Below are positions 20,190-64,000 of a DNA stretch of 64,000 nucleotides, piece by piece. The notes beneath the pieces are model-generated. The model was given only the letters and a program-made list of their open reading frames with translations, made no database searches and was not told the DNA's origin. Made by a program: the position numbers and the translations under genes. Position 1 is the stretch's first letter. Every line of letters begins with the position of its first letter. The stretch is from Candidatus Brockarchaeota archaeon (GTDB taxonomy: Archaea > Thermoproteota > EX4484-205 > JAAOZP01): contig JAFNIX010000004.1 in the NCBI GenBank assembly GCA_017601225.1, positions 68,507 through 132,506 on the forward strand, written 5' to 3'.

Positions 20190-20298
20190 TGGCAAAACAA
20201 GCATTTAGGGCGAAAGGCAGCGTTCCCTCAGGGTTAACCCTAATAATACTGAAAAAGGAAGCTTAATATATGTTTTAACAAGACAAAATAATGTAAAG

Positions 20299-21102
20299 AT
20301 GGATGTGGATAGGATTGGCGGAATAGCACTAGGCTTGGTGATGATTCTAGCAATATTCCTACTGCCTTTCGGCTCCTTTCTGCTTCCCTCAGGCAAGACT
20401 GGAGAAACAACCTTATTTAGCATTATAGTCCAATTCATTGAAAACATAGTCAGCGGCACGCAGCAGCCAATGAACCTTCTAATATACGGGATCATAATTC
20501 TAGCATCATTCATAATTCTGATCGCCGCTGGAGCACTAGGTCTATACCCATTGCGCTCCGGTGCCATAGGTATTCTTGGAATGATACTTATAACCACAGT
20601 AACAGTCTTCAACCCTGTACTCGGCTTCAACATACCGAGCTACGGGGCCGGCTATTTCATTGTCTGGGGAGCCTCCGTGGCAGCAATCGTGATAGGCAAG
20701 TTTAGACCCAATGCCAGGAGGAAGGTTGTCTCAGCGGTTTCACAACCTCCTGTGGAGGAAGTTGTGGAAACATCCAGCCCACCTATGGATCTCTTTAAAC
20801 CGTTATCAGGCACGGAAGAGCAGGCTCAAACCTCTTCGGCTGAGCCCTCTTCAATATCCGAGTCAGCAGAACCAGCATCTTCCCTATCCATCGGTCTTAA
20901 TGTTATAGAAGAGGAGATTACGAGAATCAGGGCTTTTCTAGTTGTTCTGGAGGATGAGAAGAAGGATAACATAATATCTGGCGAAGCGTACAATAGGCTG
21001 AGCGCAAGACTTCGAAAAATGCTGGACGAGCTGGAGGCTGAAAGGAAAACCGTATTGAACAGGTTGACAGAGAAAGATCTTTCCAAACAGAGTTCACTCT
21101 AA
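20299..21102 (+). CDS. Membrane protein with a Ser/Pro-rich linker and a C-terminal helical (SHOCT-like?) tail
   Basis: 267 aa. There are 4-5 hydrophobic helices, then an acidic Ser/Pro linker, then IISGEAYNRLSARLRKMLDELE. No confident family. Confidence 0.4.
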   Translation: MDVDRIGGIALGLVMILAIFLLPFGSFLLPSGKTGETTLFSIIVQFIENIVSGTQQPMNLLIYGIIILASFIILIAAGALGLYPLRSGAIGILGMILITTVTVFNPVLGFNIPSYGAGYFIVWGASVAAIVIGKFRPNARRKVVSAVSQPPVEEVVETSSPPMDLFKPLSGTEEQAQTSSAEPSSISESAEPASSLSIGLNVIEEEITRIRAFLVVLEDEKKDNIISGEAYNRLSARLRKMLDELEAERKTVLNRLTEKDLSKQSSL

Positions 21103-28665: not shown

Positions 28666-28783
28666 ACCCTTTAAAACCCTCGTCCAATGGCTCACATTCT
28701 AATCAAAACATATTAAGTTTAGAGTGAATACAAAATATATCTTCAGCAACTTTTAAATAGTGTTGCGGGAAGTGGTTTCAAAA

Positions 28784-30532
28784 ATGCCAAGCAGTAATAA
28801 ACACCCCTTCCTGAGGATTCTAGGATACGTTAAGCAGGAAAAAACCCTGCTACCATTAACATTAATCATGATCATTCTGGGAGCCTTGGTGAACATAGTT
28901 AGTCCAATCATCGCGGGGAGAGTTATCGACATAACAATCGTGAAAGCATTGTCAGAACTATGGTTTTATGCGGCGGCAATAATGATCCTAACGCTTTTAG
29001 CAGGAGGGATATCGTTTCTAAATGAGTATTTAAGCGAATCCTTGGCACAGAAAATAGTCTACAGGATTAGAATAAGCATTTACCGCCATCTTCAGGATTT
29101 ATCGTACAGCTTCTACGACAGGGTTGACTCCGGCCAGATTATAACGAGGGTGACTAGGGACACGGAGAACATAGGTAGACTACTCGGTTTCGCGCTTCCA
29201 AACATTATAGGCTCTGTAGCAATTCTGATAATAGTTGTTGCAATCCTTTTAACAACCAACTTTAGCCTAGCCTTAATAGCACTGGCAATAACACCTTTCA
29301 TAGGTATTGTTTCCCTATCTTTCAACCGCTTTGTAAGACCCCTGTTCGAAAGGATTTGGATGGAGACAAGCGGGATGAGCGCGATGATTCAGGAGACCGT
29401 TTCAGGCTTTAAGGTTTTGAAGACTCTTGGCGCCGAAGAAGAGATGTTTAAAAGGTTTGAGGCGAAAAACAGGGAGATATACAGCATAGGCATGAGAAGC
29501 GTCTTCCTTAGCTCGTTAACATGGCCTTCGCTCGGGTTAATAATCGGAGTCGGCTCGGCAATCGTATACTGGTATGGCGGCTTCCAGGCTATTAGGGGAG
29601 AGATCAGCCTGGGGCAACTCGTCACCTTCACGATGTACCTTGGCATGCTCATCTGGCCGATAATGTCGATAGGGTTCGTATTGTCAAGATATGCGGAGGC
29701 AATGGTGTCAGCGCGAAGAATATTCGAAGTCCTAGATACTGAGCCCGAGGTTAAGGAGAAGCCTGGTGCCATAGAGCTGAAAAACGTTAGGGGAGAAGTA
29801 TGTTTTAAGGATGTGGTGTTCGGCTACGATATGGATAAGCCGATACTTAAAGGGATGAGTTTTACGGTGAAGCCTGGGGAGAAAGTGGCTTTAGTGGGAG
29901 CAACCGGCTCTGGGAAAAGCACTGTGATCAAGCTAATACCGAGGTTTTATGACCCTCAGGAGGGCTGCATCCTGATAGATGGCGTGGATATTAGAGACGT
30001 AAAGATAAGCTCGCTTAGGAGAAACATAGGCATAGTTCATCAAGACGTTTTTCTATTCCCCACAACTATAAGGGAGAATATTGCTTACGGTAAGCCTAAC
30101 GCTACGCAGGAGGAAATAGAGAGGGCAGCTAAGGCGGCGAGAATACATGACTTCATAACTAGTCTTCCGAAAGGGTATGATACAGTTATAGGCGAGAGAG
30201 GGGTTACTCTTTCAGGTGGACAGAGACAGAGGCTGGCTATTGCCCGAGCCCTCCTCGTAAACCCCGCAATACTGATTCTGGACGATTCGACTTCAAGCGT
30301 GGATGCTGAAACAGAGAAGGAAATATATGAATCCTTGAGGGAACTTGTTAAGAACAAGACTGTCTTTATAGTCACACAGAGGCTTTCAACGCTTAAACTT
30401 AGTGAAAGAATAATTGTTATTGAAGACGGCAAGGTGGTTGAGGATGGGACGCATGAGGAACTCATGAGTAGAGGAGGAGTCTATGCTAAATTGTATGTTT
30501 CACAGTATGCTTTTCAGGAGGTGAAGCCGTAG
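28784..30532 (+). CDS. ABC exporter half-transporter (TMD-NBD)
   Basis: GATGSGKST, LSGGQRQRLA, ILILDDSTS. The ORF opens at GTG 28760; ATG 28784 is preferred. Confidence 0.85.
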   Translation: MPSSNKHPFLRILGYVKQEKTLLPLTLIMIILGALVNIVSPIIAGRVIDITIVKALSELWFYAAAIMILTLLAGGISFLNEYLSESLAQKIVYRIRISIYRHLQDLSYSFYDRVDSGQIITRVTRDTENIGRLLGFALPNIIGSVAILIIVVAILLTTNFSLALIALAITPFIGIVSLSFNRFVRPLFERIWMETSGMSAMIQETVSGFKVLKTLGAEEEMFKRFEAKNREIYSIGMRSVFLSSLTWPSLGLIIGVGSAIVYWYGGFQAIRGEISLGQLVTFTMYLGMLIWPIMSIGFVLSRYAEAMVSARRIFEVLDTEPEVKEKPGAIELKNVRGEVCFKDVVFGYDMDKPILKGMSFTVKPGEKVALVGATGSGKSTVIKLIPRFYDPQEGCILIDGVDIRDVKISSLRRNIGIVHQDVFLFPTTIRENIAYGKPNATQEEIERAAKAARIHDFITSLPKGYDTVIGERGVTLSGGQRQRLAIARALLVNPAILILDDSTSSVDAETEKEIYESLRELVKNKTVFIVTQRLSTLKLSERIIVIEDGKVVEDGTHEELMSRGGVYAKLYVSQYAFQEVKP

Positions 30533-30533
30533 G

Positions 30534-32336
30534 ATGGGGTGGCATTTCCGCCAGGCTGCTGAGGCCGAGGGGAAGCCTAGGGAAGTAGCGTCAAGAACTC
30601 TAATCGCGTGGCTCCTACGATGGTTAACCCCTATGAGGCTCCATGTAATCATTCTTGTGTTCGTAGCGCTGGCCTCAATAGGGGTCAACGTAGTAAGCCC
30701 ATACGTTACCAGGCTTCTGATAGACGAGGGCATTATGCAGGGTAATCCAGATGCCTTGGTGAAATATGTCCTAGTTCTATTGGTAATTGCTGCAGGAGGA
30801 TGGTTTTTAGGTTTCGCCAGAGGCAACTTGACTGGCAGGATAAACCAGAGGCTTCTTTACAGCATGAGAAGCACCGTTTTTAAACATATGGAGGAAATGG
30901 ATATCGCGCATGTTAACGTTGAGAGAACCGGTAAAATCATTTCGCTGATAATAAACGATATAAGTTCTATTGGAGAAGTAACAACCTCCGGAACGATAGA
31001 GGCAATGATAGGCTCGGCAACACTCCTCGGCTCACTGTACGTCATGTTCACCCTACACGTGGGGCTAAGCCTAGCAACACTCACCGTAGTACCTTTAATG
31101 CTTTTTCTCTCAAGGTATTTCGCAATTAAAACAAGACAGGCATACAGGCAAAGCAGGGAAAAGCTTAGCGAGTTGACGAGCAGTGTTGAGCAAAGCGTCT
31201 CTGGTTCAAGGGTTTCCCAATCATTCGCAGAGAGGAGAAACGTCGACATTGCTTCCTTCGACAGGCTTAGTGCTGAAACGATGAGGACAAACCTTAGGGC
31301 GAGGATAGTTTTCGCGATGATTAGGCCTTCGCTCGACGCTGTTAGAACGCTTTCCTACGTGATACTGATACTTTACGGGGGCAGCCTAGTGGTCTCGGGA
31401 GAAATCAGCATCGGCATTCTAATCGCATTCTACGGGTATGCTGAAATGTTCTACAGGCCCATAATCACTTTAACCACCTTCTACAGCACGTTGCAGGCTG
31501 CCTTGGCGGCGGCAGAAAGAGTCTATCTTTTCCTACAGGTGAAGCCCAGTGTTGTAGAGTCTAAAGAAGCGAGATGGATCGAGATAAAAACCGGTAAAAT
31601 AGAGTTGAAGAATGTTCATTTCGACTACGATGGGAACACTGTTTTCCAAGGGTTGAGCTTACAAGTTAAACCGGGCGAGATAGTTGCTATAGTTGGCCCG
31701 ACAGGAGCAGGTAAAACAACTCTAACTAACCTCATACTGAGGCTTTACGACCCCAAGGCAGGCGAGGTTCTGATAGACGACCATAATGTTAAGGAATTCT
31801 CCTTTAAATCGCTCAGGAAACAGGTGGCTTTGGTGCCTCAGGAACCAGTCCTGTTTAACGGCACGATTCTGGAGAACATAAGGCTGGGCAACATGGAGGC
31901 TGCTGATGAAGACGTTAAGAGAGTGGCTTCAGAACTTGGCTTAGACGAATTGATAAGCAGGATGCCGCAGAAATATGAGACAATAGTGTCCCCCGGAGGT
32001 GGAAACCTTTCGCTTGGAGAAAGACAGCTCATAAGCTTTGCAAGAGCCATGCTTAAGGATCCGAAGATCCTCATACTGGATGAGGCGACAAGCAGCTTGG
32101 ACTCTTACACCGAGGCGCTTCTCCAGAAGGCAATGGTGAAGCTTATGAAGGGAAGAACATGCATAATAATTGCCCACAGGCTTTCCACAGTGAAGCTTGC
32201 AAATAGGATATTGTTCTTAGAGAATGGGAGGGTAATTGAGGAAGGGACTCATGAGGAACTTTTGAAGAAGGGTGGTGCGTATGCTAAGCTATACGAGCTT
32301 CAGTTCGGTGCAGCTCCTGAAATAAAAGCGAAATAA
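30534..32336 (+). CDS. ABC exporter half-transporter (TMD-NBD), probable heterodimer partner
   Basis: GPTGAGKTT, LSLGERQLIS (a degenerate-looking signature), ILILDEATS. Starts 1 nt after the upstream stop. Confidence 0.85.
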   Translation: MGWHFRQAAEAEGKPREVASRTLIAWLLRWLTPMRLHVIILVFVALASIGVNVVSPYVTRLLIDEGIMQGNPDALVKYVLVLLVIAAGGWFLGFARGNLTGRINQRLLYSMRSTVFKHMEEMDIAHVNVERTGKIISLIINDISSIGEVTTSGTIEAMIGSATLLGSLYVMFTLHVGLSLATLTVVPLMLFLSRYFAIKTRQAYRQSREKLSELTSSVEQSVSGSRVSQSFAERRNVDIASFDRLSAETMRTNLRARIVFAMIRPSLDAVRTLSYVILILYGGSLVVSGEISIGILIAFYGYAEMFYRPIITLTTFYSTLQAALAAAERVYLFLQVKPSVVESKEARWIEIKTGKIELKNVHFDYDGNTVFQGLSLQVKPGEIVAIVGPTGAGKTTLTNLILRLYDPKAGEVLIDDHNVKEFSFKSLRKQVALVPQEPVLFNGTILENIRLGNMEAADEDVKRVASELGLDELISRMPQKYETIVSPGGGNLSLGERQLISFARAMLKDPKILILDEATSSLDSYTEALLQKAMVKLMKGRTCIIIAHRLSTVKLANRILFLENGRVIEEGTHEELLKKGGAYAKLYELQFGAAPEIKAK

Positions 32337-33650: not shown

Positions 33651-35498
33651 ATGCCCCTGGTAACTGTTCAACCCGAAGGTGTTAGAGTTCAGGCTCCCTA
33701 TGGGGCAAATCTATTAGCTGTGCTTAAAGAAGCAGGTGTTAACATTGAAAGCGTTTGCGGAGGGCGTGGAGTTTGTAAAAAATGCGTCGTCGAAGTTGTC
33801 AGCGGCGGGTTGACTGAGCCAACCTCGATGGAAGCAGAGGTAAGAAGCCTTTCGGAATCGTTCAGACTAGCCTGCCAGGCGCGAATCATTGGTGATATCA
33901 CTCTCAAGGTTCCTCAAACCTCTAGACAAACCAGGGGGAAGATACTGGAATGGGGGCGTGTTAAAGATTTCGGGTTTTACCCTGCAACAAGAAGCGTGAA
34001 CATTAAGATAGATGCCCCATCGCTCACCGACCAGAGGTCCGATGCTGAACGCCTCCTGCAAGCATTGAATGCGAAATCTATTGACAGGCTGCTCCTTAAG
34101 AAGCTGCCCGGTAAACTGCGTGAATTAAAATGGTACTTGGAGGCGATTCTGCATGAGGATGAAATCCTGGATGTTAGACCGCAGCGTGACCAGGACCTTT
34201 ACGGTGTTGCTGTAGACGTGGGCACCACCACGGTTGTCGCCTACCTGGTCAGCCTGAAAACCGGGCGAATCGTCTCCGTAAAATCGGATTACAATGGTCA
34301 GATAGCTTATGGTGACGACGTGATATCTAGGATAACCTACGCTGTGAAAGGAGGCAAGAACCTAGAGGAGCTTCAAAGCAAAATAGTGGCGACGATAAAC
34401 AAATTGATTCAGGATGCGGCTGATGAAGCTAAATGCTCTCCCTTCGACGTTTACGAATTATCCTTCGCTGGAAACACAGTTATGACTAGTCTCCTATATG
34501 GAGCGGAGGTTTCGGCGATAGCAGCAGCCCCCTATGTGCCACCTTTCAGGTCCAGCCTATGCTTCAAGGCTAGAGAAATAGGTCTTAGAGTTAATGATTC
34601 TGCGATTGGTTACACTTTTCCGTTAATCAGCGGCTATGTTGGGGGAGACGTGGTTGCGGACATACTTGTTTCAGGAATGCACGAGCAGGATGAGAAATCC
34701 CTCCTCATAGACCTTGGAACCAACGGTGAAGTCGTCTTGAAAGCGGGGGATCTGATGCTCGCGTCCTCCACAGCTGCGGGACCAGCTATTGAAGGAGCCG
34801 GGCTTTCAAACGGAATGAGAGGGATGGATGGTGCGATAGAATCGGTTTCGATTAACGTGGAGAACTTCGACGTTTACTATAAGACGATAGGCGACACGGA
34901 TCCGAGAGGAATATGTGGCTCCGGAGTTGTTGACGCAGTAGCATGGATGCTTATAGCCGGAGTTTTAGACCAGAAGGGAAGGATTGTTGACTTAAATATT
35001 CCGAGGATTGTGAATACGGGTGGAGATAAGGCCTTCGTGTTAGCGGTTAATAAGGAGGGTCGAAGAATCTGCATAACGCAGACAGACATCAGGAGTTTTC
35101 AACTTGCTAAGGCAGCCATATTTACTGCATGCCTACTACTTCTAAGGATTGGAGGGGTAAGTTTGAGCGAGATATCTAAAGTATACATTGCAGGAGCCTT
35201 TGGAAACTATATTGATCCAAGGTCTGCAATGATAGTTGGCATGATCCCTGAGCTTCCTTTAAGCAAAATTGTACAGATAGGAAATGGTTCAGGCCAAGGT
35301 GCAGTAATGAGCCTTCTTTCCAGAAAAGCGAGGGAAGAGGCTGAAATCGTGGCTAGGAAAGTGAGGGCTATCGATTTAAATACGCTCCGCGAGTTTCAAA
35401 GCGAATTCATTGATGCAACACTATTCCCCCATAAGAAAACGGGCATGTTTCCGAGAGTGATGAAGGCTATAAGTATGAAGACTCCTTTGCTGGATTAA
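33651..35498 (+). CDS. Corrinoid reductive activase (RACo/AcsV-like: 2Fe-2S ferredoxin plus ASKHA ATPase)
   Basis: N-terminal CGGRGVCKKC...LACQ plant-type ferredoxin motif. The rest is actin-like ATPase (VAVDVGTTT, LIDLGTNGE, GICGSG). 615 aa. Confidence 0.75.
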   Translation: MPLVTVQPEGVRVQAPYGANLLAVLKEAGVNIESVCGGRGVCKKCVVEVVSGGLTEPTSMEAEVRSLSESFRLACQARIIGDITLKVPQTSRQTRGKILEWGRVKDFGFYPATRSVNIKIDAPSLTDQRSDAERLLQALNAKSIDRLLLKKLPGKLRELKWYLEAILHEDEILDVRPQRDQDLYGVAVDVGTTTVVAYLVSLKTGRIVSVKSDYNGQIAYGDDVISRITYAVKGGKNLEELQSKIVATINKLIQDAADEAKCSPFDVYELSFAGNTVMTSLLYGAEVSAIAAAPYVPPFRSSLCFKAREIGLRVNDSAIGYTFPLISGYVGGDVVADILVSGMHEQDEKSLLIDLGTNGEVVLKAGDLMLASSTAAGPAIEGAGLSNGMRGMDGAIESVSINVENFDVYYKTIGDTDPRGICGSGVVDAVAWMLIAGVLDQKGRIVDLNIPRIVNTGGDKAFVLAVNKEGRRICITQTDIRSFQLAKAAIFTACLLLLRIGGVSLSEISKVYIAGAFGNYIDPRSAMIVGMIPELPLSKIVQIGNGSGQGAVMSLLSRKAREEAEIVARKVRAIDLNTLREFQSEFIDATLFPHKKTGMFPRVMKAISMKTPLLD

Positions 35499-53247: not shown

Positions 53248-54774
53248 GTGGAAGCTGGAGCCACATTCATTCTTGGCGTAGACCTTGGAACCTCAGCCTG
53301 TAAGACGGTCGTCTTCACTTTAGACGGAAGAAGGGTTGCTTCAGCCTCTAGGGAATACCCGGTTATTCAGCCCCAGCCAAGGTGGGCGGAGCAGAATCCA
53401 CTTGAATGGTGGAGGGCAGCCGTCGAAACCATAAGGGAGAGTCTCGCTAAAAGACGGATAGAGGGCAGCCGGATAGTCGGATTAGCCGTAGACTCTCAGC
53501 GGGAGGCGGTGGTGCCGGTTGGAGCCAACGGTGAAGTACTCTATAATAGCATAATATGGCTTGACAGGAGGACTGAGGAGCAGACTGAGAGGATGAGGAG
53601 CCTGCTGGATGAGAGCATGGTTCTCCGCACAACGGGTGTTGGAATAAACCCTGTCTTCTCAGCGTCGAAAATCCTCTGGCTTAAGGAGAACTTTCCAAAT
53701 ATATTTTCTAAGACTAAAGTCTTCCTTTTCGCGAAGGATTTCATTATTTACAAGCTAACTGGGGAGAAGATAACCGATTACTCCATGGCGTCGAGAACAA
53801 TGCTTTTCGACATAAGAAGGAGAAAATGGGCTGAAGAAATATGCTCCACACTCGGCATACCTGTTGACAAACTCCCGCCACCCTGTGAATCAAGCATCAT
53901 TGTTGGAGAAGTATCCTCTAATGCTTCTGTTGAAACATCTTTACCTAGGGGCCTACCGGTTGTAAACGGGGGAGGAGACAGGCCATGCGAGTGCCTGGGA
54001 GCAGGAGTGATTAAGGAGGGGGCAGTCAACATAGGAACTGGGACAGGATCCACTTTCGAAGCCCCATTGAGCAGGCCGAACCCTGATTTAAGAGGAAGGG
54101 TTAACTGTTGTTGCCACGTGATTCCGGGTGCATGGGAGTATGAAGCATCAATCTCGACAACAGGCGGAGCCCTACGCTGGTTCAAGAATGTTTTCGGGGA
54201 AAGAGAGTCTAAGGAGGCGGAGGAAACCGGCGGAGACCCGTATGATTTAATAATCCGAGGCGCTCTCGAGACAAATCTTGGCGCAGACGGTCTTTTGTTC
54301 TATCCTTATTTAGCCGGAGCTTTCCCACCTAGGGTGGATGGGAAGGCACGCGCCGTATTCTTCGGAATCAACCTATCCCACTCTAAGGGCCATTTTGTCA
54401 GAGCAATACTGGAGGGGGTTGCTTTCCACTATCTCACGGTGCTTGAACTCCTGAGGGAGCTTGGCTTAGAGATAGCTGAAGTAAGCATGGTTGGCGGCGA
54501 GACGAGGAGCGATTTCTGGAACCAGCTTAAGGCAGACGTAACCGGTAGAAGAATAAGGATCCCGGAGGTTGAGGATGCAGCCGCTATGGGGGCAGCCATT
54601 CTAGCGGGAATCGGCACAGGCCAGTATACGAGCGTGCAGAAGGCTGTTGAATCAACGGTTAGAACAAGAAGGGTATACGTGCCTAATGCTGAGAACCACT
54701 CGGCTTACTTAAAGCTGTATGAAAAATATGAAGCAATATACGCGTTAATCTCAAAGGCGTATGATGTTTACTAA
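53248..54774 (+). CDS. FGGY-family carbohydrate kinase (xylulokinase-like)
   Basis: ILGVDLGTSACK start (GTG), NIGTGTGS, MVGGETRS, and AAAMGAAILAG. Confidence 0.85.
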   Translation: MEAGATFILGVDLGTSACKTVVFTLDGRRVASASREYPVIQPQPRWAEQNPLEWWRAAVETIRESLAKRRIEGSRIVGLAVDSQREAVVPVGANGEVLYNSIIWLDRRTEEQTERMRSLLDESMVLRTTGVGINPVFSASKILWLKENFPNIFSKTKVFLFAKDFIIYKLTGEKITDYSMASRTMLFDIRRRKWAEEICSTLGIPVDKLPPPCESSIIVGEVSSNASVETSLPRGLPVVNGGGDRPCECLGAGVIKEGAVNIGTGTGSTFEAPLSRPNPDLRGRVNCCCHVIPGAWEYEASISTTGGALRWFKNVFGERESKEAEETGGDPYDLIIRGALETNLGADGLLFYPYLAGAFPPRVDGKARAVFFGINLSHSKGHFVRAILEGVAFHYLTVLELLRELGLEIAEVSMVGGETRSDFWNQLKADVTGRRIRIPEVEDAAAMGAAILAGIGTGQYTSVQKAVESTVRTRRVYVPNAENHSAYLKLYEKYEAIYALISKAYDVY

Positions 54775-54791: not shown

Positions 54792-55982
54792 CTACTGTGA
54801 TGGCTGAAAATAGTTTGCGAGCTCAACCCATGCTCGTGAAGAGTCCAAACAGACATCGGCGAAGACGAGTACCCCTGAAGCCCCCGCTCTCATTGCCCCT
54901 TTGACGGAGTCAACCCACTCCCAGCCAGGCATGTTCCCAGTTGTTGACAACGAGCCGCCGACGCAAGGCATAACCAGCACACTACTATTACTCTTCTCAA
55001 CCTGCTCAACTATACTCCTAGCAGTATCCTCAACCCATTTAACAGGCATACTGTTATCCCTATGGTAAAGCATTGGGCAAACAACGTCGACGAGACCCTG
55101 CCGCACCCACTCGCTCCAATCAACACCCATAGCCTGCCTATTCCAATTCGAATCGTAGGAAACATCTGCTGATAAAACTATGTCCGGGTTAATCTGTTTC
55201 ACAGCACTCCTAATTTCCCTCAGGAAATCCGTTACGATCTGCGCCCTCCAGCCTATCCACTCGCTCCTTAGGCTTCCCCCAGCCAGCACGTCTTGAGGCC
55301 AGTTCTGCACCTTCCTACCGAGGAACGATTCGAAAGACCTTCTCGCGTTCTCGCTGAAGTCAGCCTCAATGCCTGGCGGAAAGCCGAAATCATCCTCTAT
55401 GTTTATACCGTCAACACCATACTCCTGCACCAGCTCAACGATGTAGGACTTTATATAGTTCCTAGCACCCTCACTTGCCGGGGACAAGTAGTACCAGCCC
55501 CATTGATGGAAGGACCCGTGTGAAAGCTGGTCCTCACCCTTCTCGTTAACTATCCCCCAGTCAGGATGTTGAAGAAGCACCGACCTGCTCGTCCTGAATC
55601 CCACAACCCACGCCCATACCTTCAGGCCGTTTCTATGGCTTTCCTCAACAACTATTTTCAAAGGATCCTCGTCGCTTTTAAAATTACCGAGGTAATCCAT
55701 GTCAACTGGAACTATTTTACTCCTGTAGTCAGGCAAACCCCCCGCGTGGACTACGAAGGGCAGCACAATGTTGAACCCGCTGCTCTTGATTTTACCTATA
55801 TAGAACGTGAAATTCCTCGAAACAGACCTGTCGGGAAACTCATACATGTATAGGAAAACTCCTCTTAACTCCGGCTTCGGAGGCTCTTCAATCCTCATTA
55901 TCCTGTTCAACAAGAAGTATGAAGCCACTATCAGAAGCAATACCAGAACTGGAAAAACAAGCATTGTGCTTCTCTTAGACAC
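54792..55982 (-). CDS. GHL10-like (glycosyl-hydrolase-like family 10 / YngK-like) membrane-anchored protein
   Basis: N-terminal TM anchor with TIM-barrel-like segments (VDGINIEDDFGFP, GLVDVVCPMLY). Paralogous to 56271..57494. Confidence 0.5.
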   Translation of the reverse strand: MSKRSTMLVFPVLVLLLIVASYFLLNRIMRIEEPPKPELRGVFLYMYEFPDRSVSRNFTFYIGKIKSSGFNIVLPFVVHAGGLPDYRSKIVPVDMDYLGNFKSDEDPLKIVVEESHRNGLKVWAWVVGFRTSRSVLLQHPDWGIVNEKGEDQLSHGSFHQWGWYYLSPASEGARNYIKSYIVELVQEYGVDGINIEDDFGFPPGIEADFSENARRSFESFLGRKVQNWPQDVLAGGSLRSEWIGWRAQIVTDFLREIRSAVKQINPDIVLSADVSYDSNWNRQAMGVDWSEWVRQGLVDVVCPMLYHRDNSMPVKWVEDTARSIVEQVEKSNSSVLVMPCVGGSLSTTGNMPGWEWVDSVKGAMRAGASGVLVFADVCLDSSRAWVELANYFQPSQ

Positions 55983-56270: not shown

Positions 56271-57494
56271 ATGTGCTTCCCGAGGAAAGTGTCGAGGATC
56301 AGCATTTTTATACTCTTGCCGATGCTCCTGACTTCAACGATGCGGATTACGCCGAATGCTTCAACCTCTTCTGTGAAAAAGGATTTCTTCGTAGGAGTCT
56401 GGCTGGGAATGTATAGCGACTATTGGCCCAGTGAGAAAACAGAATGGTTGAGAAAGGTCGACGAATCCTTCATGTCCCTCAGGGAGGCAGGAGTCGACGC
56501 CATCTACTTTCTAGCTAAAGACCCTTGGGGATATGTTTACTATGAATCCAAGTATGCTCCATTATCCGAGAAATACAGTTGGGATCCTTTGAGAGAGGTT
56601 GTGGCGAAAGCTAGGGAACACGGGCTTCAAATATATCCGTATGTAAACGCACTGGCTGAAGGAGAAAGTCAGCCGAACTTCTATCTGAAAGAGCATCCTG
56701 AGTTAGCGGTTTCGCCAGCAAACGGTGAAAACGGTTGGGTCGACCCGTCTAGCGAAGAATATGTTGATAGACTGCTATCCATCATTGAAGAAATCGTTTC
56801 AAACTATGATGTTGACGGAGTACAGTTGGACAGGATAAGAATGCCAAGCCCAGTAATCAGGGCGAAAGCCAGTGAAAAACTCTATATGGAGACAACCGGC
56901 CTCTCACCAGGCAGCGACGAAAAAAAGTGGCAGGAATTCGTTAAAAGCCAGGTTTCTAAAGTTGTGCAGAAAGTATGCGAAAAAGTTAAGTCGATAGACA
57001 GGGGCCTGAAGTTTTCTGCCGCGGTTTTCCCCTCTCCTTCGAACGCGGCTGTAAACCAGCTTCAAGACTGGAGGAAGTGGGTTGAAGAAGGATGGGTTGA
57101 CTACGTGTGCACCATGGCTTACGCACAAGGGTTCTACGTCTTCAAGTCTTACGTTGATGAGGAGAAGATGGCTTGCGAGCCTGAAAAACTATACGTGGGG
57201 ATAGGTGCATGGCAATTGTCACCCTCTGAACTGAAAAAACAGATAAAGTATGTTGCAGTGGACTCAGGGCTGCCCGGGGTGCTCTTGTTCAACGCGGATT
57301 CTCTACTCAGCAACAGGGAGCTTCTTAACGCTGTAAGGGAAGCAAAAGACGGAAAGTTTGAAGAAGACTCATCATTCTTCACAAATCTGTTTAGCACAGC
57401 CTCGGTAATAATATTGTTCTGTGCAACACTGTCCTTGTTCTACCAGCTTAGGAAGAAGCCTGGGAAAAACGTTTCTCAGAAGAAAGCTTATTAG
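56271..57494 (+). CDS. GHL10-like protein with a signal/anchor and a C-terminal TM helix
   Basis: VDGVQLDRIRMPSP and GWVDYVCTMAY parallel the divergent neighbour. The C-terminus carries a hydrophobic helix followed by a basic tail. Confidence 0.5.
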   Translation: MCFPRKVSRISIFILLPMLLTSTMRITPNASTSSVKKDFFVGVWLGMYSDYWPSEKTEWLRKVDESFMSLREAGVDAIYFLAKDPWGYVYYESKYAPLSEKYSWDPLREVVAKAREHGLQIYPYVNALAEGESQPNFYLKEHPELAVSPANGENGWVDPSSEEYVDRLLSIIEEIVSNYDVDGVQLDRIRMPSPVIRAKASEKLYMETTGLSPGSDEKKWQEFVKSQVSKVVQKVCEKVKSIDRGLKFSAAVFPSPSNAAVNQLQDWRKWVEEGWVDYVCTMAYAQGFYVFKSYVDEEKMACEPEKLYVGIGAWQLSPSELKKQIKYVAVDSGLPGVLLFNADSLLSNRELLNAVREAKDGKFEEDSSFFTNLFSTASVIILFCATLSLFYQLRKKPGKNVSQKKAY

Positions 57495-57516
57495 ACTAAT
57501 AGGCTTTCAAAGAGTA

Positions 57517-59472
57517 ATGCTCAGGATAAAGGTGAACTCTAAGCTTCTAGAGGCCGGCGACAAGATTAAACTGACGATTAGACCAGGAAGGAAGGCTCCG
57601 GGAAAGATAAGGCTTTTGAAACCCGGCGGTGAACCCTTAGAGGTTGAAACAAGACTAGGGGGAAACGTTGCTACAGTCACCTACTCAGACACAGATAGGA
57701 AGGGTCTTTACGTGTTCAACATTAAGACGAATAGCAAGACGTACAAGAAATGGGTGATGGTTGGGAGCATGATGCTGGACTGGTATAGTGTTTCTGAGGA
57801 AAATGGCCGAGAAGACGTTATAAAATATCTCGATTCCTTCTCACACATCGGGAACGTGATTGTACTACACAACATAACTGGGCCTATGAAAACACTATAC
57901 CCTAGTAGAAGGTTTCCAGTCGCCAGTAAGCAGGATCCAGATTTCTTCGACTTTTTCTTGAAGGAGACCGCTAGAAGAGGCTGCGCAGTCCTTTTCTCAT
58001 ACCATTGGGTTCCAGAGACCCATGTTGACATGTGGAGGTTTCCATCCAGAGAGCAGACCTCTCAGGCCAAGATGGTGATAAGAGAACTGTATCAGCTCTA
58101 TTCCAACTATGACTCTATGGCTGGGTTCTACTCATACTGGGAGCCGGGAGACACTGCCGAACTTCCTTACTACAAAGAAACCCTAGACTATGTTAAGAAG
58201 CTGGACGACGGGCTTTTCACTGCAGCAGCACCATACTTGTTCTCAACCGAGAAATACCATGGAGGCTCATTACCATTAATGTTTTCAGCTTTATCAACTG
58301 TTGGAAGCCTGGATTGCTTAATACCTCAGTCCAGTGTGGCAGTATACCCTTATCCTTTGAACAAGACTAAGGATCATGCCGCTCTAGCCGTAGGCTCCTC
58401 AACCCCCCTAGGGAAAATCGTGCTTGGCCATGTTGAAACGTTCGCAAGGGTTTTCGTGGAAAACGAGAGGGCTCCTCCTGTAGAATTCATCAAGGGCCAG
58501 GTTTTAAGCGCATCGTTCACGAGAGGTGCTCACGGAGCTTCAACATTCATCTACTCGTTATTGTTCAAAAGGGATGAGAATACTGTTCGCTCTTTCGAAG
58601 AGGCTGTCAGGTGGCTTAAGGAAATCAGCATGTTTCGAAGAAAGCTGAGCCCAGTTGGGATCTACGCACCCTTAGACCCTGATCATTGGCCAACTGTTCT
58701 GAGTCCATTCCTGAGGAAGCTCCGGACGCTCGGTTTGGACGCTAGTGTATTGCAGCCGCCGCTCTGCAAGAATGAAAAATGGGAGAGGTTTGTTGAAGAC
58801 AATATTAGGGTAATAGTATTGCCAGATCCTCCAGAGTTAAACGAGTCTGAAACGAGGTTTTTGGGAAATTATTTGAAGAAAGGAGGGTCGATCATTGTCC
58901 TAGGCTACCCGCCTAAGGGTCTTAGACGCCTCCTAGGGGTGGAGAGCAGGAACATTGGTAAATATGGGGGTTTGAAACTGTTGGAAAAGATGGCTGACAG
59001 GGTTCCCGCAGGCACCCTCAAAAGGTTTGGTTTTGAACTCGTGTACTGCGTGACTCCGACAGAGGCAAAGCCCATAGGGGTCTATGAGTCAATACCCTCC
59101 GGGTTCCAGCCTGGCGCATACGGGATCACGAGGATGGAGAGCAGGGGAGGATGCAGGGTATTCATAGGAATACCCTCTGCAGTGGTTCTGGAAAAAGTAC
59201 CGGAACTGCTTTTAGACGCGGTTGATTCAGTGCTTTCCAGATCTGGCCTAAGGATCCCGTGGGAGATTCATGGATTGACTGAGGATTGCGACTCACTCGT
59301 TGGAGAAGACTTCATCCTGGTGGTGAACCTTTCCGAAGGAGAAATAAAGGTGACAGCCAAGCACAGGGGTGAGAACCCGCCAGCCTCCTTCGAGCTAATG
59401 GGCAGCCACCAAGGACACGTGAAGCTCGACAGGGACCGTTTAAAATTACCCTTAAGCCGTTCGAACCCATAG
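57517..59472 (+). CDS. DUF4434-like glycoside-hydrolase-type TIM-barrel protein with a C-terminal GATase1-like domain (tentative)
   Basis: The ORF opens at 57421 inside the upstream gene; ATG 57517 removes the overlap. The SMAGFYSYWEPGD segment and a later VIVLPDPPELNESE...GGSIIVLG segment are suggestive only. Confidence 0.4.
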   Translation: MLRIKVNSKLLEAGDKIKLTIRPGRKAPGKIRLLKPGGEPLEVETRLGGNVATVTYSDTDRKGLYVFNIKTNSKTYKKWVMVGSMMLDWYSVSEENGREDVIKYLDSFSHIGNVIVLHNITGPMKTLYPSRRFPVASKQDPDFFDFFLKETARRGCAVLFSYHWVPETHVDMWRFPSREQTSQAKMVIRELYQLYSNYDSMAGFYSYWEPGDTAELPYYKETLDYVKKLDDGLFTAAAPYLFSTEKYHGGSLPLMFSALSTVGSLDCLIPQSSVAVYPYPLNKTKDHAALAVGSSTPLGKIVLGHVETFARVFVENERAPPVEFIKGQVLSASFTRGAHGASTFIYSLLFKRDENTVRSFEEAVRWLKEISMFRRKLSPVGIYAPLDPDHWPTVLSPFLRKLRTLGLDASVLQPPLCKNEKWERFVEDNIRVIVLPDPPELNESETRFLGNYLKKGGSIIVLGYPPKGLRRLLGVESRNIGKYGGLKLLEKMADRVPAGTLKRFGFELVYCVTPTEAKPIGVYESIPSGFQPGAYGITRMESRGGCRVFIGIPSAVVLEKVPELLLDAVDSVLSRSGLRIPWEIHGLTEDCDSLVGEDFILVVNLSEGEIKVTAKHRGENPPASFELMGSHQGHVKLDRDRLKLPLSRSNP

Positions 59473-59527: not shown

Positions 59528-59675
59528 CTAGCGCATGCTTCACGTTTCTTATCCTTATTTTCGGCACGATCCGACCCGCCCCATTCCTAGTCCTCTTGCT
59601 GACAGCGTCTACGGATCGAAGCATCTTAAGGACCATGCTTCCAGCACGATGTTTTTTCCCAGAATCTCTCCCCGC
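59528..59675 (-). pseudogene. Relic 3' end of a TldD/PmbA-family gene (left direct repeat)
   Basis: The minus-strand translation VLKMLRSVDAVSKRTRNGAGRIVPKIRIRNVK aligns ungapped, 22/32 identical, with the C-terminus of the intact gene at 63634+. There is no upstream gene body. A 1-nt indel removes the stop, producing the read-through ORF 59268..59636. Confidence 0.6.
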
Positions 59676-59774
59676 TCAGCTACTAGCTTTTCGACTCCTA
59701 GTGTATACTGATAAGCTGACAAGAATCCTTTAATTTTTTATAATAATATATTTTATATATGCCTAAAAATTAAG

Positions 59775-59782
59775 TTTAAATA
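59775..59782 (+). promoter_or_regulatory. TATA-like box TTTAAATA (a second, TTTTATATAT, lies at 59751-59760)
   Basis: It lies within an extremely AT-rich stretch (59730-59790), with its 3' end 23 nt upstream of ATG 59805. Confidence 0.4.
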
Positions 59783-59804
59783 TTGCCATACGAAGACCTA
59801 TTGG

Positions 59805-59963
59805 ATGCTCAGCATACGTGCTATAGAGAAAGCACCCCAAGAAAGTTATGAGGCTCCTAAAGTGTTTTCACCCCTGCCAGGAGAACCAGTAGAACCATGT
59901 GGACACGCGCATGCCCATCTCAAGTATGTTGCAGATGCAGACTACGATACCTCCCCAACATAA
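59805..59963 (+). CDS. Candidate RiPP precursor peptide (52 aa, not in the ORF track)
   Basis: My own translation: MLSIRAIEKAPQESYEAPKVFSPLPGEPVEPCGHAHAHLKYVADADYDTSPT. It uses the first ATG after the in-frame stop at 59712-59714 and ends 9-12 nt before the maturase start on the same strand. Confidence 0.4.
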   Translation: MLSIRAIEKAPQESYEAPKVFSPLPGEPVEPCGHAHAHLKYVADADYDTSPT

Positions 59964-59975
59964 GATTGTATATTG

Positions 59976-61343
59976 ATGACAGGAATTTCAACAGATGATG
60001 TTTTTTCTCCAAGCCTTGGAACAAAATTACTCCAAAAAAGAGGAATTAAATATTTCTTGCTAATCAATCCAAACCTATTTTCTTGTGCAAGAATTAACCA
60101 GACCGCACGCGAGATATTTGAACTTTGTAATGGAACAAATAGCTTAGAAGACATTTCGAAAATTCTCTCCAATAAATACGGTATTGATCTTGAAAGATTG
60201 AGAAAAGATGTGGTTCAAACTACTGAGTTGCTCTATTCCTATGGTTTGCTAGTACGTCCTAATGATCCTAATCCGATTCCTCAAGACATGTTTCGAGTAG
60301 GTAACTTGGAAGAAGTCTGGATAAATGTAACCAATAAATGTAACCTGCATTGCCTGACATGTTTCAAAAATGCTGGAACCAAGTATCCAAGAGAATTAAC
60401 GGTTGAAGAAATCGAAAGTCTTGTTAAAGAAATTTCATCGAATTTTCATCATCTGACTGTAATAATTAGCGGAGGCGAGCCTACTCTAAGAGAAGACCTG
60501 ATTCATATTTTAAAAGTGATAAAGGATAACATGTTAAAGGTACATTTAATTACCAATGGCACACTGTTGACCAGGAGCATGATAAGTGAATGGAAAAGTA
60601 TTGGGGTTGATTTCGTGCAAGTTAGTTTGGACGGAAGTAAACCCGAAGTTAACGATGTCATAAGGGGGGAAGGCATTTTTCAACAAGTAGTAAACAACGT
60701 AAAGTTATTAAAGGAATTTGATCTTCGGTTCAGTTTATATCCAACAATTTGCAAACTCAATTTGGAGGACGTGCCAAACATGATAAAACTTTTTAGCGAA
60801 ATAACTGGTAGATCGCGGTTTAGCGCAGCGTTTTTTGCTCCTGTTGGAAGAGGTTCAATTAACGAAGGAGATCTCGCAGTGAGTTCAGATGATTATATCG
60901 AGTTGTTTAAGAGAATAATTAAAGACAAAAGATTAAGCCCCATGATGAGAAATTTAGAAGGTTTTGAGTCCCAAATAGATAGAGTCCCACCTAATTTGAC
61001 GAGAAAATTGAATTGTGGTCTTGGAACAGCTACCATAAGCATAGATGCAGATGGCTCAGTTTATCCCTGCCATTGGTTACATTTACCTCAATATAAGGCA
61101 GGAAACATAAGAGAAAGACGGTTCTCCGAGCTCTATTTTAAATCTGAAGTCTTACAAAGACTTCGAGGAATACGTGTGGATAAACTTGAAAATTGTGCAG
61201 AGTGTGAGATACGCTATCTCTGCGGAGGTGGTTGCAGAGCTCTTGCACTCATTAAGAATGGTTCCCTAGAAGCCAGATTTCCTTATTGTGATTTCTTTAA
61301 ATTCTATTTTGACCATGCATTATGGGGAGTGTGGGACCTGTAA
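59976..61343 (+). CDS. Radical SAM / SPASM peptide maturase with an N-terminal PqqD-like RRE domain
   Basis: The N-terminal ~95 aa (INQTAREIFELCNGTNSLEDISKILSNKYGIDLERLRKDVVQTTELLYSYGLLV) are PqqD-like. CNLHCLTC is the CxxxCxxC motif, with SGGEPTL nearby. C-terminal SPASM: CGLGTATISIDADGSVYPCH...CAECEIRYLCGGGCRA. TTG 59973 is an alternative start. Confidence 0.85.
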   Translation: MTGISTDDVFSPSLGTKLLQKRGIKYFLLINPNLFSCARINQTAREIFELCNGTNSLEDISKILSNKYGIDLERLRKDVVQTTELLYSYGLLVRPNDPNPIPQDMFRVGNLEEVWINVTNKCNLHCLTCFKNAGTKYPRELTVEEIESLVKEISSNFHHLTVIISGGEPTLREDLIHILKVIKDNMLKVHLITNGTLLTRSMISEWKSIGVDFVQVSLDGSKPEVNDVIRGEGIFQQVVNNVKLLKEFDLRFSLYPTICKLNLEDVPNMIKLFSEITGRSRFSAAFFAPVGRGSINEGDLAVSSDDYIELFKRIIKDKRLSPMMRNLEGFESQIDRVPPNLTRKLNCGLGTATISIDADGSVYPCHWLHLPQYKAGNIRERRFSELYFKSEVLQRLRGIRVDKLENCAECEIRYLCGGGCRALALIKNGSLEARFPYCDFFKFYFDHALWGVWDL

Positions 61344-61344
61344 A

Positions 61345-62427
61345 ATGAATGCTATAGAAACCCAAAACCTCACAAGAGTGTTTGAAAGATATAACTATAC
61401 TGACACGCAGGTAAGTATGGATAGAGAGGATAATCCGGGCGGCCTATTTTTGTCGCTTTATAACAGATACTTCAATAAAAATGTCAAAAAAGAGACGATC
61501 TATGCGGTTAATGAAGTAAGTATCAAAGTGAAAAAAGGTCAGTTAGTTTGCATTCTAGGGCCAAATGGATGTGGAAAAACAACCTTGTTAAGAGTCCTTG
61601 CGACCCTATTGAAGCCAACTCAAGGAACTGCCTACATCATGGGTCATGATGTCGTTAAAGAAGAAAAAGTGATCTGGAGATATGTAACCTATGTGGCCGG
61701 ATTGCTTACCGGGGGGGCTTGGATGGATTTCCGCCTTACGCCAAAGGATATTCTCACGATTCAAGCGAGGCTGTATGGTTTTCCGGAAGAAAGGATCAGA
61801 GACGCGCTTGAACTTTCAAGACTTATAGATGTCGCAAATGTTAGGGTCTCCACATTTTCCACAGGCATGCTTGCTAGGCTCTCCGTCGCAATAGGTTTGC
61901 TGAGGGACTCGCCGGTCTACCTTTTAGATGAACCTATGGTTGGAATTTCAAAGGATGTTACTGAAGAGTTATATTCTTACGTGAAAAATAATATTCAAAA
62001 AAGGGCAGGAGCCACATTCTTATATGCGACAAATAACGTACTTGAAGCTCAACGTCTAGCTGATGAGATCATAATGATGTATAGGGGTAAGGTTATTGCC
62101 CAAGGAAAGGTAGATGAACTCATTACAAAGTTCTTTAAAGAACAAGCGATCGATATCGAAATTTCCAATTGTTCGTCCGATATCTTAAAGTCGATAGATA
62201 GTCTACCGAAAGTCTCAAAGATAATAAATCTTACAAGCAAAAACGAATCTGATATTACTTTAGTGATATACACTGCATCCCCCAGAGAGATTTTACCAAT
62301 CCTAATTCGAGAGATTTTAGAAAAGAATGGAGAGATCAGATACATAAAAGTTCGCGAGCCCACTTTAGAAGATGTCTTTATCAAAGTTATGAAAGAAAAA
62401 TCGAAGGAGGGTGAAGTTGCAAGTTGA
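61345..62427 (+). CDS. ABC transporter ATP-binding protein (ABC-2 type) with a C-terminal accessory domain
   Basis: GPNGCGKTT Walker A, FSTGMLARLS signature variant, VYLLDEP Walker B. ATG 61345 starts 1 nt after the maturase stop. The track ORF opens at 61288 inside the maturase gene. Confidence 0.8.
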   Translation: MNAIETQNLTRVFERYNYTDTQVSMDREDNPGGLFLSLYNRYFNKNVKKETIYAVNEVSIKVKKGQLVCILGPNGCGKTTLLRVLATLLKPTQGTAYIMGHDVVKEEKVIWRYVTYVAGLLTGGAWMDFRLTPKDILTIQARLYGFPEERIRDALELSRLIDVANVRVSTFSTGMLARLSVAIGLLRDSPVYLLDEPMVGISKDVTEELYSYVKNNIQKRAGATFLYATNNVLEAQRLADEIIMMYRGKVIAQGKVDELITKFFKEQAIDIEISNCSSDILKSIDSLPKVSKIINLTSKNESDITLVIYTASPREILPILIREILEKNGEIRYIKVREPTLEDVFIKVMKEKSKEGEVAS

Positions 62428-63293
62428 GATTTCAGCAACTATGTACAAAGATCCGATTTTACATGCATCACTTCTTCAGATTCTTTATCTTTAATCTATT
62501 AATGCGGTATTATTGGATGGAGTGGATGTTGCCTTTCCACATCGTTAATCTGATTATCGGAGTATCCACATGGATATTCTTCGCCAACACCTTTGGAAGT
62601 TCCAGTCCATTTCTTCAAAATTATGGTAATGATTTCATCTCGTTTTTAATTTTGGGTTTAATGTTTAATAGCCTGTTTGCCTATACTCTAGATGGCTTTC
62701 GCATTTCGACACTTCTTTTCTTGAGGGGAAGGATTGGGAGCATGGGACAGCATTTAAGCATGTACGATTATGTAAAACTTTGTGGAATACCGGTCTCCGT
62801 GCCAATTCTCGCATGGTTAATTGACGGCTATATAGAGACATCTATAACTTTACTTGTTTACCTTATCGCCGGCATTATCTTCGGTCTAAATATTGGTTCT
62901 GGTAATTATCTTGTAGCGCTTGTCGGCATATTGATTGGATTGTTTGCAGTGGCAGGAATTGGACTACTTTCAGCAAGCATGATAACGATTGCTGGAGCTT
63001 GGAAAGGAATCGAACCTATAAGTTGGCTCGTCAAATTGTTAGTTGGCTTACTGGCAGGCGTGTATTTTCCGACAGAAGCACTTCCAGATAGTCTGCAACT
63101 TATTTCTCTACTATTACCACATACCTATGCACTTAAGATAGCACGAATGGCCCTCTTGACGGGTTTCGGTTTTGAAAGCTTGATCTCAGAGTTTCTAGCA
63201 GTTTCATTAATGAGTTTGATTCTTTTTCCACTTGGGATAATAGTATACAGGTACTCGATCGCTCTGATAAAGATAAAGACGCTCGTTGAATAG
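62424..63293 (+). CDS. ABC-2-type transporter permease
   Basis: 289 aa with about 6 hydrophobic helices. The TTG start overlaps the ATPase TGA (TTGA); ATG 62463 is an alternative. Confidence 0.65.
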   Translation: MRFQQLCTKIRFYMHHFFRFFIFNLLMRYYWMEWMLPFHIVNLIIGVSTWIFFANTFGSSSPFLQNYGNDFISFLILGLMFNSLFAYTLDGFRISTLLFLRGRIGSMGQHLSMYDYVKLCGIPVSVPILAWLIDGYIETSITLLVYLIAGIIFGLNIGSGNYLVALVGILIGLFAVAGIGLLSASMITIAGAWKGIEPISWLVKLLVGLLAGVYFPTEALPDSLQLISLLLPHTYALKIARMALLTGFGFESLISEFLAVSLMSLILFPLGIIVYRYSIALIKIKTLVE

Positions 63294-63310
63294 TTCACTT
63301 CAAGAAACGC

Positions 63311-63633: not shown

Positions 63634-63790
63634 CTAACCGCTTACCTTCACTTTTCCTATCCTTATTTTCGGCGCGACCCGCCCCGCCTCGTTCCTAGTC
63701 CTCCTGCCAACAGCGTCCACAGATTGAAGCATTTCAAAAACGGTGCTTCCAACCATAGCGTTCTTCACAGGATGCTTCACCTCCCCGTTT
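63634..63790 (-). repeat. Right direct repeat (3' end of the intact TldD/PmbA gene)
   Basis: It shares the identical 16-mer tatccttattttcggc (63658-63673 versus 59550-59565, 4108 bp apart). By eye, identity is about three quarters over roughly 110-150 nt. Confidence 0.6.
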
Positions 63791-64000
63791 TCAACAAGGA
63801 ACCCGTGGTCGATGAGGCTTGAGATATTAGTTGACCCCCCGACTGGTCCTAATGAACTGTCGTAAACATATATTCCCCGCTTCACGTCTTTAAAGAGCTC
63901 ATCGTCTCCATAATCCCCCGAAGCTATCTGGAGATTAGTTAGGCTGGGCACAGGCTTCTCGGCTAAACTGGGCCTAGCTGCATGCCCATTGTTCTCAATA
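63634..64000 (-). CDS. TldD/PmbA-family metalloprotease, C-terminal part (gene continues beyond the window)
   Basis: LTNLQIASGDYGDDELFKDVKRGIYVYDS..G......NISSLIDHGFLVENGEVKHPVKNAMVGSTVFEMLQSVDAVG......GRVAPKIRIGKVKVSG is a typical TldD/PmbA C-terminus. The frame stays open to position 64000; the M at 63951 in the track is an internal GTG. Confidence 0.75.
   Translation of the reverse strand, partial: IENNGHAARPSLAEKPVPSLTNLQIASGDYGDDELFKDVKRGIYVYDSSLGPVGGSTNISSLIDHGFLVENGEVKHPVKNAMVGSTVFEMLQSVDAVGRRTRNEAGRVAPKIRIGKVKVSG

Follow-up and report, generated by a model that had tools for sequence, protein, structure and literature searches.

Gene organization of the locus

The analysed window is a 64,000-nucleotide stretch of DNA from a Candidatus Brockarchaeota archaeon (contig JAFNIX010000004.1), and near its right end it carries four closely packed genes on the forward strand. 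By the logic known from operons for peptides that are ribosomally synthesised and modified post-translationally (RiPPs), these genes very probably direct the synthesis of a RiPP of an undescribed precursor class. They encode a 52-aa precursor peptide (MLSIRAIEKAPQESYEAPKVFSPLPGEPVEPCGHAHAHLKYVADADYDTSPT; 59805..59963), a 455-aa maturase that combines a RiPP recognition element (RRE) with a radical S-adenosylmethionine (SAM) core and a SPASM domain (59976..61343), a DrrA-like ATP-binding cassette (ABC) subunit of 360 aa (61345..62427), and an ABC-2-type permease of 289 aa when read from a TTG codon (62424..63293). The architecture itself is ordinary for RiPP biology and already annotated automatically. 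What is new, as judged from the sequences, is the precursor class and the maturase clade tied to it, for neither of which was a description found in curated models or in the openly accessible literature searched.

The precursor stop codon (59961-59963) is separated from the maturase by 9 nt or 12 nt, depending on whether the latter starts at TTG 59973 (456 aa) or one codon downstream at ATG 59976 (455 aa). The maturase TAA ends at 61343, leaving a single nucleotide before the ATPase ATG at 61345, and within the sequence TTGA the permease start TTG (62424) runs into the ATPase stop TGA (62425-62427). These spacings, reported in the initial annotation, proved correct on re-reading of the sequence. 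The open reading frame (ORF) 59973-61343 described there is likewise present on the forward strand, and a near-identical NCBI protein (P0001, 99% identity) starts at the ATG, has 455 aa and is named 'PqqD family peptide modification chaperone [Thermoproteota archaeon]'. Precursor and maturase share a reading frame, with TAA and four codons (DCIL) between them, so that readthrough of the stop would fuse both. This relation is probably incidental, because it is not retained in the homologous locus L001.

Upstream of the precursor, an AT-rich stretch (59725..59790, forward strand, GC about 0.4) with a TTTATATA-like box about 45 nt 5' of the precursor ATG is a putative promoter region. A promoter scan with a bacterial-type consensus gave one match, at 59716-59744. 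The ATPase carries the Pfam domains ABC_tran and DrrA1-3_C and scores 193 bits, under the cutoff, against the drrA subfamily of NCBIfam, in which the permease has a weak drrB match. The start of the permease is uncertain: it is annotated with 258 aa in the sister genome (L029) and with 255 aa in L030, but in a Fervidicoccus homologue the alignment covers the 289-aa form from its first residue. The sister genome, GCA_038827035.1, is labelled Thermoproteota archaeon, and its 235-kb contig JAWBNZ010000001.1 is 99.7% identical to the window; the archaeal context given in the initial annotation is based on this match.

The precursor family

The leader of the precursor spans about residues 1-33 and holds the conserved motif YExPxVFxPLP; the core begins at H34 (59904) and reads H34-x-H36-x-H38, LKYVA, D44-x-D46-x-D48. 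The precursor alignment shows no variation at P18, H36, H38, D44, D46 and D48 and hardly any at H34, and the family core can be written as [H/C]xHxH, 4-8 residues, and DxDx[D/E]. The leaders of archaeal and acidobacterial precursors are mutually unrelated, yet H36, H38, D44, D46 and D48 are shared. The only cysteine of the window precursor (C32) is not conserved, being absent from L001, L002, L004 and P0131, and tryptophan is not conserved among precursors either. The C-terminus of the window precursor is DTSPT.

Synonymous differences between the four closest archaeal precursor genes are saturated (pS 0.66-1.0), whereas nonsynonymous differences stay low (pN 0.05-0.26), which indicates a coding gene under purifying selection. 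On these sequence grounds, the 52-aa ORF is regarded as a genuine precursor gene. The peptide has no Pfam or NCBIfam family match. When the precursor profile was run exhaustively as a hidden Markov model against 1.84 billion representative proteins, only seven true members emerged, and a word-indexed search of 5.8 billion proteins gave nine precursors, all of them unnamed or 'hypothetical'. Two further profile hits, P0130 (an ankyrin-repeat protein) and P0133, were discarded as false positives.

About 13 loci from Thermoproteota, WOR-3, Acidobacteriota and Thermoanaerobaculia (the window, L001-L006, L008 and L032-L036), archaeal as well as bacterial, combine a maturase homologue of 35-60% identity with a homologous small ORF beside it. 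Wherever a homologous locus has sequence on the side in question, such an ORF adjoins the maturase. The window core, …YEAPKVFSPLPGEPVEPCG-HAHAH-LKYVA-DADYD-TSPT, can be set beside HGHAH-LKYVA-DADYD in L004, HLHAH-LKYVA-DLDTD in L001, HAHIH-WKYVA-DADYD in L002, HTHAH-IKYVA-DADSD in L034/L035 and HGHLH-IGGLL-DADFD in L033. In L032, where the precursor lies 3' of the maturase, the core is HSHWH-FKPF-DCDSD. The WOR-3 locus L003 has CLHWH-ILWTLF-DTDAD and the WOR-3-type precursor P0132 has CMHWH-ILFNLF-DTDAE, so that cysteine replaces the first histidine in both. The acidobacterial and Thermoanaerobaculia precursors of L005, L006 and L008 (HSHTH-TCSVFGVI-DADTD and variants) include acidobacterial forms in which the histidine strand is lengthened to HxHxHxC, and L036 (HSHSH-FCSPIAEG-DGDSD) lengthens the acidic strand to ExDxDxD, at the mirror position.

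The L032 locus (388-1451, 2941-3207) has peculiarities of its own: the precursor overlaps the maturase from downstream and ends in a 25-aa proline-rich C-terminal tail, and transposase genes (HTH_29/DDE_3) lie directly upstream of the maturase.

Close maturase homologues are few, with identities of 43-60% for P0002-P0011 and 35-40% for P0012-P0020. Among the next-nearest maturases, at 31-33% identity, no precursor was found in L037, and L038 encodes an unrelated 98-aa precursor rich in cysteine and aromatic residues. Scanning of L007, L009-L011, L015 and L016, with maturases of about 30% identity, revealed nothing recognisable as a precursor. Because the maturases at 31-33% identity come without an HxHxH…DxDxD precursor, the family is, as far as these sequences tell, small and sharply bounded, comprising maturases whose mutual identity is about 35% or more.

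Conserved exporter genes

An ABC exporter accompanies the precursor/maturase pair in most loci. Homologues of the ATPase (37-65% identity) and of the permease (36-63%) lie 3' of the maturase in L002, L004, L031 and L033, and the earlier view that precursor, maturase and exporter form one unit is supported by this conserved synteny across homologous loci. In the acidobacterial loci, a fused ABC_membrane/ABC_tran exporter that is non-orthologous to the archaeal ABC-2 pair is encoded downstream; a divergent HlyD-ABC-MacB set is added in L006, and a MacB-type permease is present in L036. Export as a conserved partner function, performed by non-orthologous transporters, argues for a product that would be secreted rather than kept as an intracellular cofactor.

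Domain structure and relatives of the maturase

All three domains proposed for the maturase in the initial annotation were recovered by Pfam above the gathering scores (positions in the 456-aa numbering; residue numbers elsewhere follow the 455-aa form): PqqD at residues 40-93 (38.3 bits against 23.4), Radical_SAM at 117-273 (106.6 against 29.5) and SPASM at 348-412 (38.1 against 21.5). The radical SAM core (about residues 116-272; 60321-60791) contains the cluster motif CNLHCLTC, a CxxxCxxC arrangement of C122, C126 and C129, and the sequence SGGEP (165-169; G166-G167-E168-P169), all of them invariant in 60 homologues. The SPASM region (C347-C438; 61014-61289) has seven cysteines that are equally invariant in the 60 homologues, namely C347, C365, C407, C410, C416, C420 and C438. 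With the cluster motif, the seven-cysteine SPASM domain, the RRE and the co-located precursor, the enzyme has every feature of the general class of RRE-dependent radical SAM/SPASM RiPP maturases.

The AlphaFold2 model, built on a 60-sequence alignment, is of high quality (predicted local distance difference test (pLDDT) 96.2, predicted template modelling score (pTM) 0.92). Its N-terminal part follows the order β-β-β-α-α-α, with strands at 17-20, 27-31 and 36-40 and helices at 42-50, 57-68 and 72-88 (pLDDT >95), so that residues 17-88 (60024-60239) show the RRE topology that structure prediction had been proposed to reveal.

Whether the nearest relatives act on peptides was the other point raised earlier. 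Foldseek against the PDB ranks first the RRE-bearing peptide maturases CteB (5WGG, E 3e-21, 475 columns), SkfB and SuiB, in this order, followed by the anaerobic sulfatase-maturating enzyme (anSME), TigE and PqqE; EpeE is listed too, at E about 1e-11. Searched singly against the PDB, the maturase sequence has anSME nominally on top (1.4e-19, against 2e-18 for CteB), whereas the family profile gives E 9e-38 for CteB (positions 40-452, including part of the RRE) against 3e-28 for anSME. The peptide maturase CteB therefore leads by profile and by structure, ahead of anSME. On neither of the two points was the initial interpretation refuted, and it is supported.

The SPASM cysteines align with the cluster cysteines of CteB and anSME in the family-profile alignment. 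The extra cysteine that follows the first SPASM cysteine in anSME is missing from the maturase family, as it is from CteB. This residue completes auxiliary cluster I in anSME, and a domain lacking it would hold a three-cysteine auxiliary cluster I with an open iron site. By analogy, the alignment implies such an open site in the maturase family.

In NCBIfam, 98 models matched the maturase, and statements on families rest on the best 25 of these. All matches lie far below the cutoffs, and no curated model claims the enzyme. The top match is WgkB (169 bits, cutoff 650), and others are NirJ2 (163, cutoff 500), StsB (162, cutoff 625), PapB (117, cutoff 340), the SCIFF maturase (TIGR03974; 93, cutoff 425) and DynA (91, cutoff 450).

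Genomic setting

The operon lies in a 3.6-kb island of low GC content, which falls from about 0.49 to about 0.37 across roughly 59700-63300. An imperfect direct repeat of 128 nt (59538-59665 and 63646-63773, 77% identity) brackets the island. The intact PmbA/TldD gene whose 3' end (63634..64000, reverse strand) holds the right copy is convergent with the operon and marks the right island edge, where GC returns to about 0.5. This gene encodes 444 aa in the sister genome, on whose contig Pfam detects PmbA_TldD domains. The left copy, at the other edge (59538..59665, reverse strand), is a relic of a PmbA/TldD 3' end: it corresponds to the last 40 codons of the adjacent gene (68% amino acid identity, tblastn E 1e-13, aligned also as DNA) and has lost the stop codon. 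The island thus looks like an insertion into, or beside, the 3' end of pmbA. No integrase was found within it, and Rfam and tRNA scans of the whole window were empty and so gave no target of integration and no independent marker of taxonomy.

Elsewhere, related clusters stand in unrelated settings: after an FGGY kinase gene in L004, beside DDE transposase genes in L032 and near toxin-antitoxin genes in L034. The low-GC island with its pmbA relic, these unrelated contexts and the distribution across archaea and bacteria together suggest that the RiPP cluster was acquired by horizontal transfer.

Past the right end of the window, as seen in the sister genome (L029), two PmbA/TldD paralogues (13659-14993 and 18976-20358) lie about 4 kb apart, separated by four unannotated genes, one with a weak HTH_3 match; only the nearer of the two is matched by the relic that precedes the RiPP operon. 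The adjacent PmbA/TldD was considered as a leader peptidase and set aside, since none occurs nearby in any other locus.

The remainder of the window contains several further features. Two divergent paralogues of the GHL10 (glycosyl hydrolase-like 10) family (54792-55982, reverse strand; 56271-57494, forward strand) stand beside an FGGY sugar kinase gene (53248-54774), and a gene for such a kinase is also found directly upstream of the homologous cluster in L004. A 683-aa ORF (57421-59472, forward strand) overlaps the end of a GHL10 gene and has no Pfam or NCBIfam match; its stretch is annotated as two genes (133 and 458 aa) in the sister genome. Three large ABC genes form a run on the forward strand (26001-28175, 28760-30532 and 30534-32336), the first two encoding MsbA/HlyB-like fused permease-ATPase exporters. 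An ORF at 33651-35498 (forward strand) matches the corrinoid activation/regeneration protein AcsV with 484 bits (cutoff 800), which hints at corrinoid-dependent methyl-transfer metabolism in this archaeon.

Comparison with characterized systems

CteB, the SCIFF thioether maturase of Clostridium thermocellum, shares with the present enzyme the N-terminal RRE, the radical SAM barrel and the two-cluster SPASM layout, and it is the best match by both measures. However, identity is only about 18-20%, and the TIGR03974 score is far below its cutoff. The substrates also differ: CteB modifies a peptide with six cysteines, whereas the conserved residues here are histidine and aspartate, and no cysteine is conserved.

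A similar operon logic is known from subtilosin A, whose genes (sboA-albABCDEFG) encode a small precursor, the RRE-radical SAM-SPASM enzyme AlbA and an ABC ATPase and permease, and whose product carries three nested bridges on a hairpin. In subtilosin, the donors are cysteine thiols spaced i, i+3/i+6 on a helical hairpin, whereas the donors proposed here are histidines at i, i+2 and i+4, a β-strand spacing. M16 peptidases of the AlbE/F type are absent from the window; one M16 peptidase gene is located upstream in the WOR-3 locus L003.

The thioether analogues suggested in the initial annotation, such as ranthipeptides, do not apply, because the only cysteine of the precursor is not conserved; more telling is the conserved HxHxH…DxDxD core, which that annotation had overlooked. 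A sactipeptide or ranthipeptide reading (AlbA, CteB, PapB or StsB types) was rejected on this ground, conserved cysteine donors being absent, and scores against StsB, PapB and SCIFF models place the enzyme outside these thioether families. The WgkB/streptide type does not fit either, as the score is far below the cutoff and tryptophan is not conserved in the precursors.

Other enzymes offer partial precedents for the residues involved. Aspartate is the acceptor in PapB ranthipeptides, where its side-chain carbons are competent radical acceptors, but the donors there are cysteines in CX3D motifs. Dynobactin carries a His-N-to-Cβ link, made by the radical SAM/SPASM enzyme DynA, but its precursor has no HxHxH…DxDxD motif. 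HaaB, HtkB and YhhB, compared here by description, are radical SAM/SPASM enzymes that join histidine imidazole C2 to a Cβ radical in precursors with multiple Hxx motifs (PMC11499958). Their rings are local (Ω1-X2-X3) and no invariant aspartate triad occurs in their motifs, unlike in the present precursor. As far as the sequences reveal, the HxHxH…DxDxD motif fits no described family, and the modification chemistry is probably new.

Proposed modification and alternative explanations

The HxHxH…DxDxD region is likely to be the modified core. The step from there to its chemistry is more tentative, and intramolecular cross-linking is put at slightly below an even chance. The same guarded degree of belief applies to the favoured reading as a whole, that of an exported RiPP whose core is cross-linked by this maturase. 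A cross-link joining specifically histidine (or cysteine) to aspartate is a doubtful proposal, although the best supported one as to bond type. Equally speculative is the idea of a β-hairpin stapled by three, sometimes four, nested cross-links from imidazole or thiol to aspartate, which would constitute a new class of RiPPs. The domain architecture, the precursor with its conservation and motif, and the co-conserved exporter are established, whereas the register of the hairpin, the donor and acceptor roles, the kind of bond and the export of the product are inferred.

The proposal would operate as follows. The leader, with its YExPxVFxPLP motif, is predicted to bind the N-terminal RRE of the maturase, and the core would fold as a β-hairpin with the [H/C]xHxH strand opposite the DxDx[D/E] strand. 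Two strands of a hairpin are suggested because the triads are fixed at i, i+2 and i+4 while the loop between them varies from 4 to 8 residues; moreover, AlphaFold applied to the precursor alone predicts strands at 34-39 and 43-48 (pLDDT 73-79 in that part). A three-residue turn between these predicted strands would place three donor/acceptor pairs face to face, namely H38-D44, H36-D46 and H34-D48. The radical SAM cluster would generate 5'-deoxyadenosyl radicals that abstract hydrogen from the Cβ or Cα of aspartate. Much as substrate cysteine does in CteB, the histidine imidazole, or the cysteine of some relatives, would probably dock at the open iron position of auxiliary cluster I and then couple to the carbon radical. 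Repeated rounds could staple the hairpin with as many as three nested cross-links, reminiscent of the three nested bridges of subtilosin, and the DrrAB-like ABC-2 transporter would export the product and/or protect the producer. The idea of a donor/acceptor ladder comes from variation within the family: the exchange of cysteine for histidine in WOR-3, the acidobacterial HxHxHxC and the ExDxDxD of L036 would all fit it. Links from histidine C2 to Cβ, as made by HaaB, HtkB and YhhB, give it a chemical precedent (PMC11499958).

Several observations weigh against this reading. The similarity in NCBIfam is spread evenly over WgkB, NirJ2, StsB, AhbD, MftC and others and singles out no reaction. The precursor model is of low confidence overall (pLDDT 67, 8 sequences), and the hairpin register is derived from strand limits, not from coordinates. 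The ABC-2 pair is missing from L003, from loci of the L005/L006/L008 type and from L032; a leader peptidase is absent from the operon, and the conserved gene set of the homologous loci includes no peptidase. The pair of HxHxH and DxDxD could equally be a metal-binding site left unmodified.

An unlikely alternative is that the maturase forms three-residue cyclophanes of the triceptide kind, from an aromatic Ω1 to the Cβ of X3, within the histidine strand (for example, H34-A-H36, H36-A-H38 or H38-L-K40), the aspartate triad then serving recognition, solubility or metal binding. Histidine-containing Ω1-X2-X3 motifs (HAA, HNR, HTK) are proven cyclophane substrates of radical SAM/SPASM enzymes, and some of these precursor families are multi-Hxx (PMC11499958). 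HxH and HxK triplets are present in the window precursor, in which, as in its closest relatives, H-[LWI]-K directly follows the triad. Yet the precursors of WOR-3, L033 and the acidobacterial type have no H-x-K, while the aspartate triad is invariant. Cyclophane formation would also leave unexplained this invariance of DxDxD, the mirror extensions (HxHxHxC with ExDxDxD) and the cysteine-for-histidine exchange, and no triceptide synthase model appears among the best 25 of the 98 NCBIfam matches. Decidedly improbable is a secreted metal-binding peptide that presents three histidines and three aspartates on one face and receives from the maturase a change other than a cross-link, such as Cα epimerisation or another side-chain modification. 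Histidine and aspartate triads are well-known ligands of metals, auxiliary clusters occur in radical SAM epimerases, of which EpeE is in the Foldseek list, and the exporters are conserved. However, EpeE/YydG-type enzymes are much weaker Foldseek matches than CteB, SkfB and SuiB, the island holds neither an uptake system nor a metal-regulated gene, and cross-linking is the activity most often associated with a full two-cluster SPASM domain that comes with an RRE.

Readings without an exported peptide fare far worse. That the ORF encodes the precursor of an intracellular redox cofactor, in the manner of PqqA/PqqE or MftA/MftC, is very hard to credit, despite the PqqD-type RRE and the presence of MftC (TIGR03962, E 1e-41) and PqqE (TIGR02109, E 3e-35) among the NCBIfam matches. 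The scores, 140 bits against a cutoff of 265 for MftC and 121.9 against 381 for PqqE, are far too low for membership of either family. The precursor has no E-x3-Y motif of the PqqA type and ends in DTSPT instead of the GVY of MftA, no genes like pqqB/C/D or mftD/E/F are adjacent, the neighbours encode an ABC transporter, and the conserved partners are exporters, not tailoring enzymes. A non-peptide SPASM enzyme, either an anaerobic sulfatase maturase or a haem enzyme of the NirJ/AhbD type, with a spurious upstream ORF, is effectively excluded. It could appeal to the nominal first place of anSME in the single-sequence search and to the high NCBIfam ranks of NirJ2 and AhbD. Against it, the family profile places CteB 10 orders of magnitude ahead of anSME, the RRE is present, and the small ORF is conserved under purifying selection. 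The NCBIfam scores are all far below the cutoffs (for anSME, TIGR03942, 95.9 bits against 349), the extra SPASM cysteine of anSME is missing, and no sulfatase or haem gene is located nearby.

Significance

New peptide chemistry and antibiotics, including darobactin, dynobactin and the sactipeptides, have demonstrably come from operons with an RRE-radical SAM-SPASM enzyme. The HxHxH…DxDxD substrate motif differs from those of described classes and is conserved across the divide between archaea and bacteria. A 52-aa peptide and a single enzyme make up a pair directly testable by heterologous co-expression and a good lead for genome mining, of moderate interest as long as the predicted chemistry lacks confirmation. 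The family would lengthen the still short list of archaeal RiPPs for which a precursor is defined. If the proposal is true, a cross-strand link between histidine and aspartate would be a bond that no radical SAM enzyme is yet reported to form, and a stapled-hairpin class of RiPPs would be made by thermophilic archaea, Acidobacteriota and WOR-3, having spread among them by horizontal transfer.

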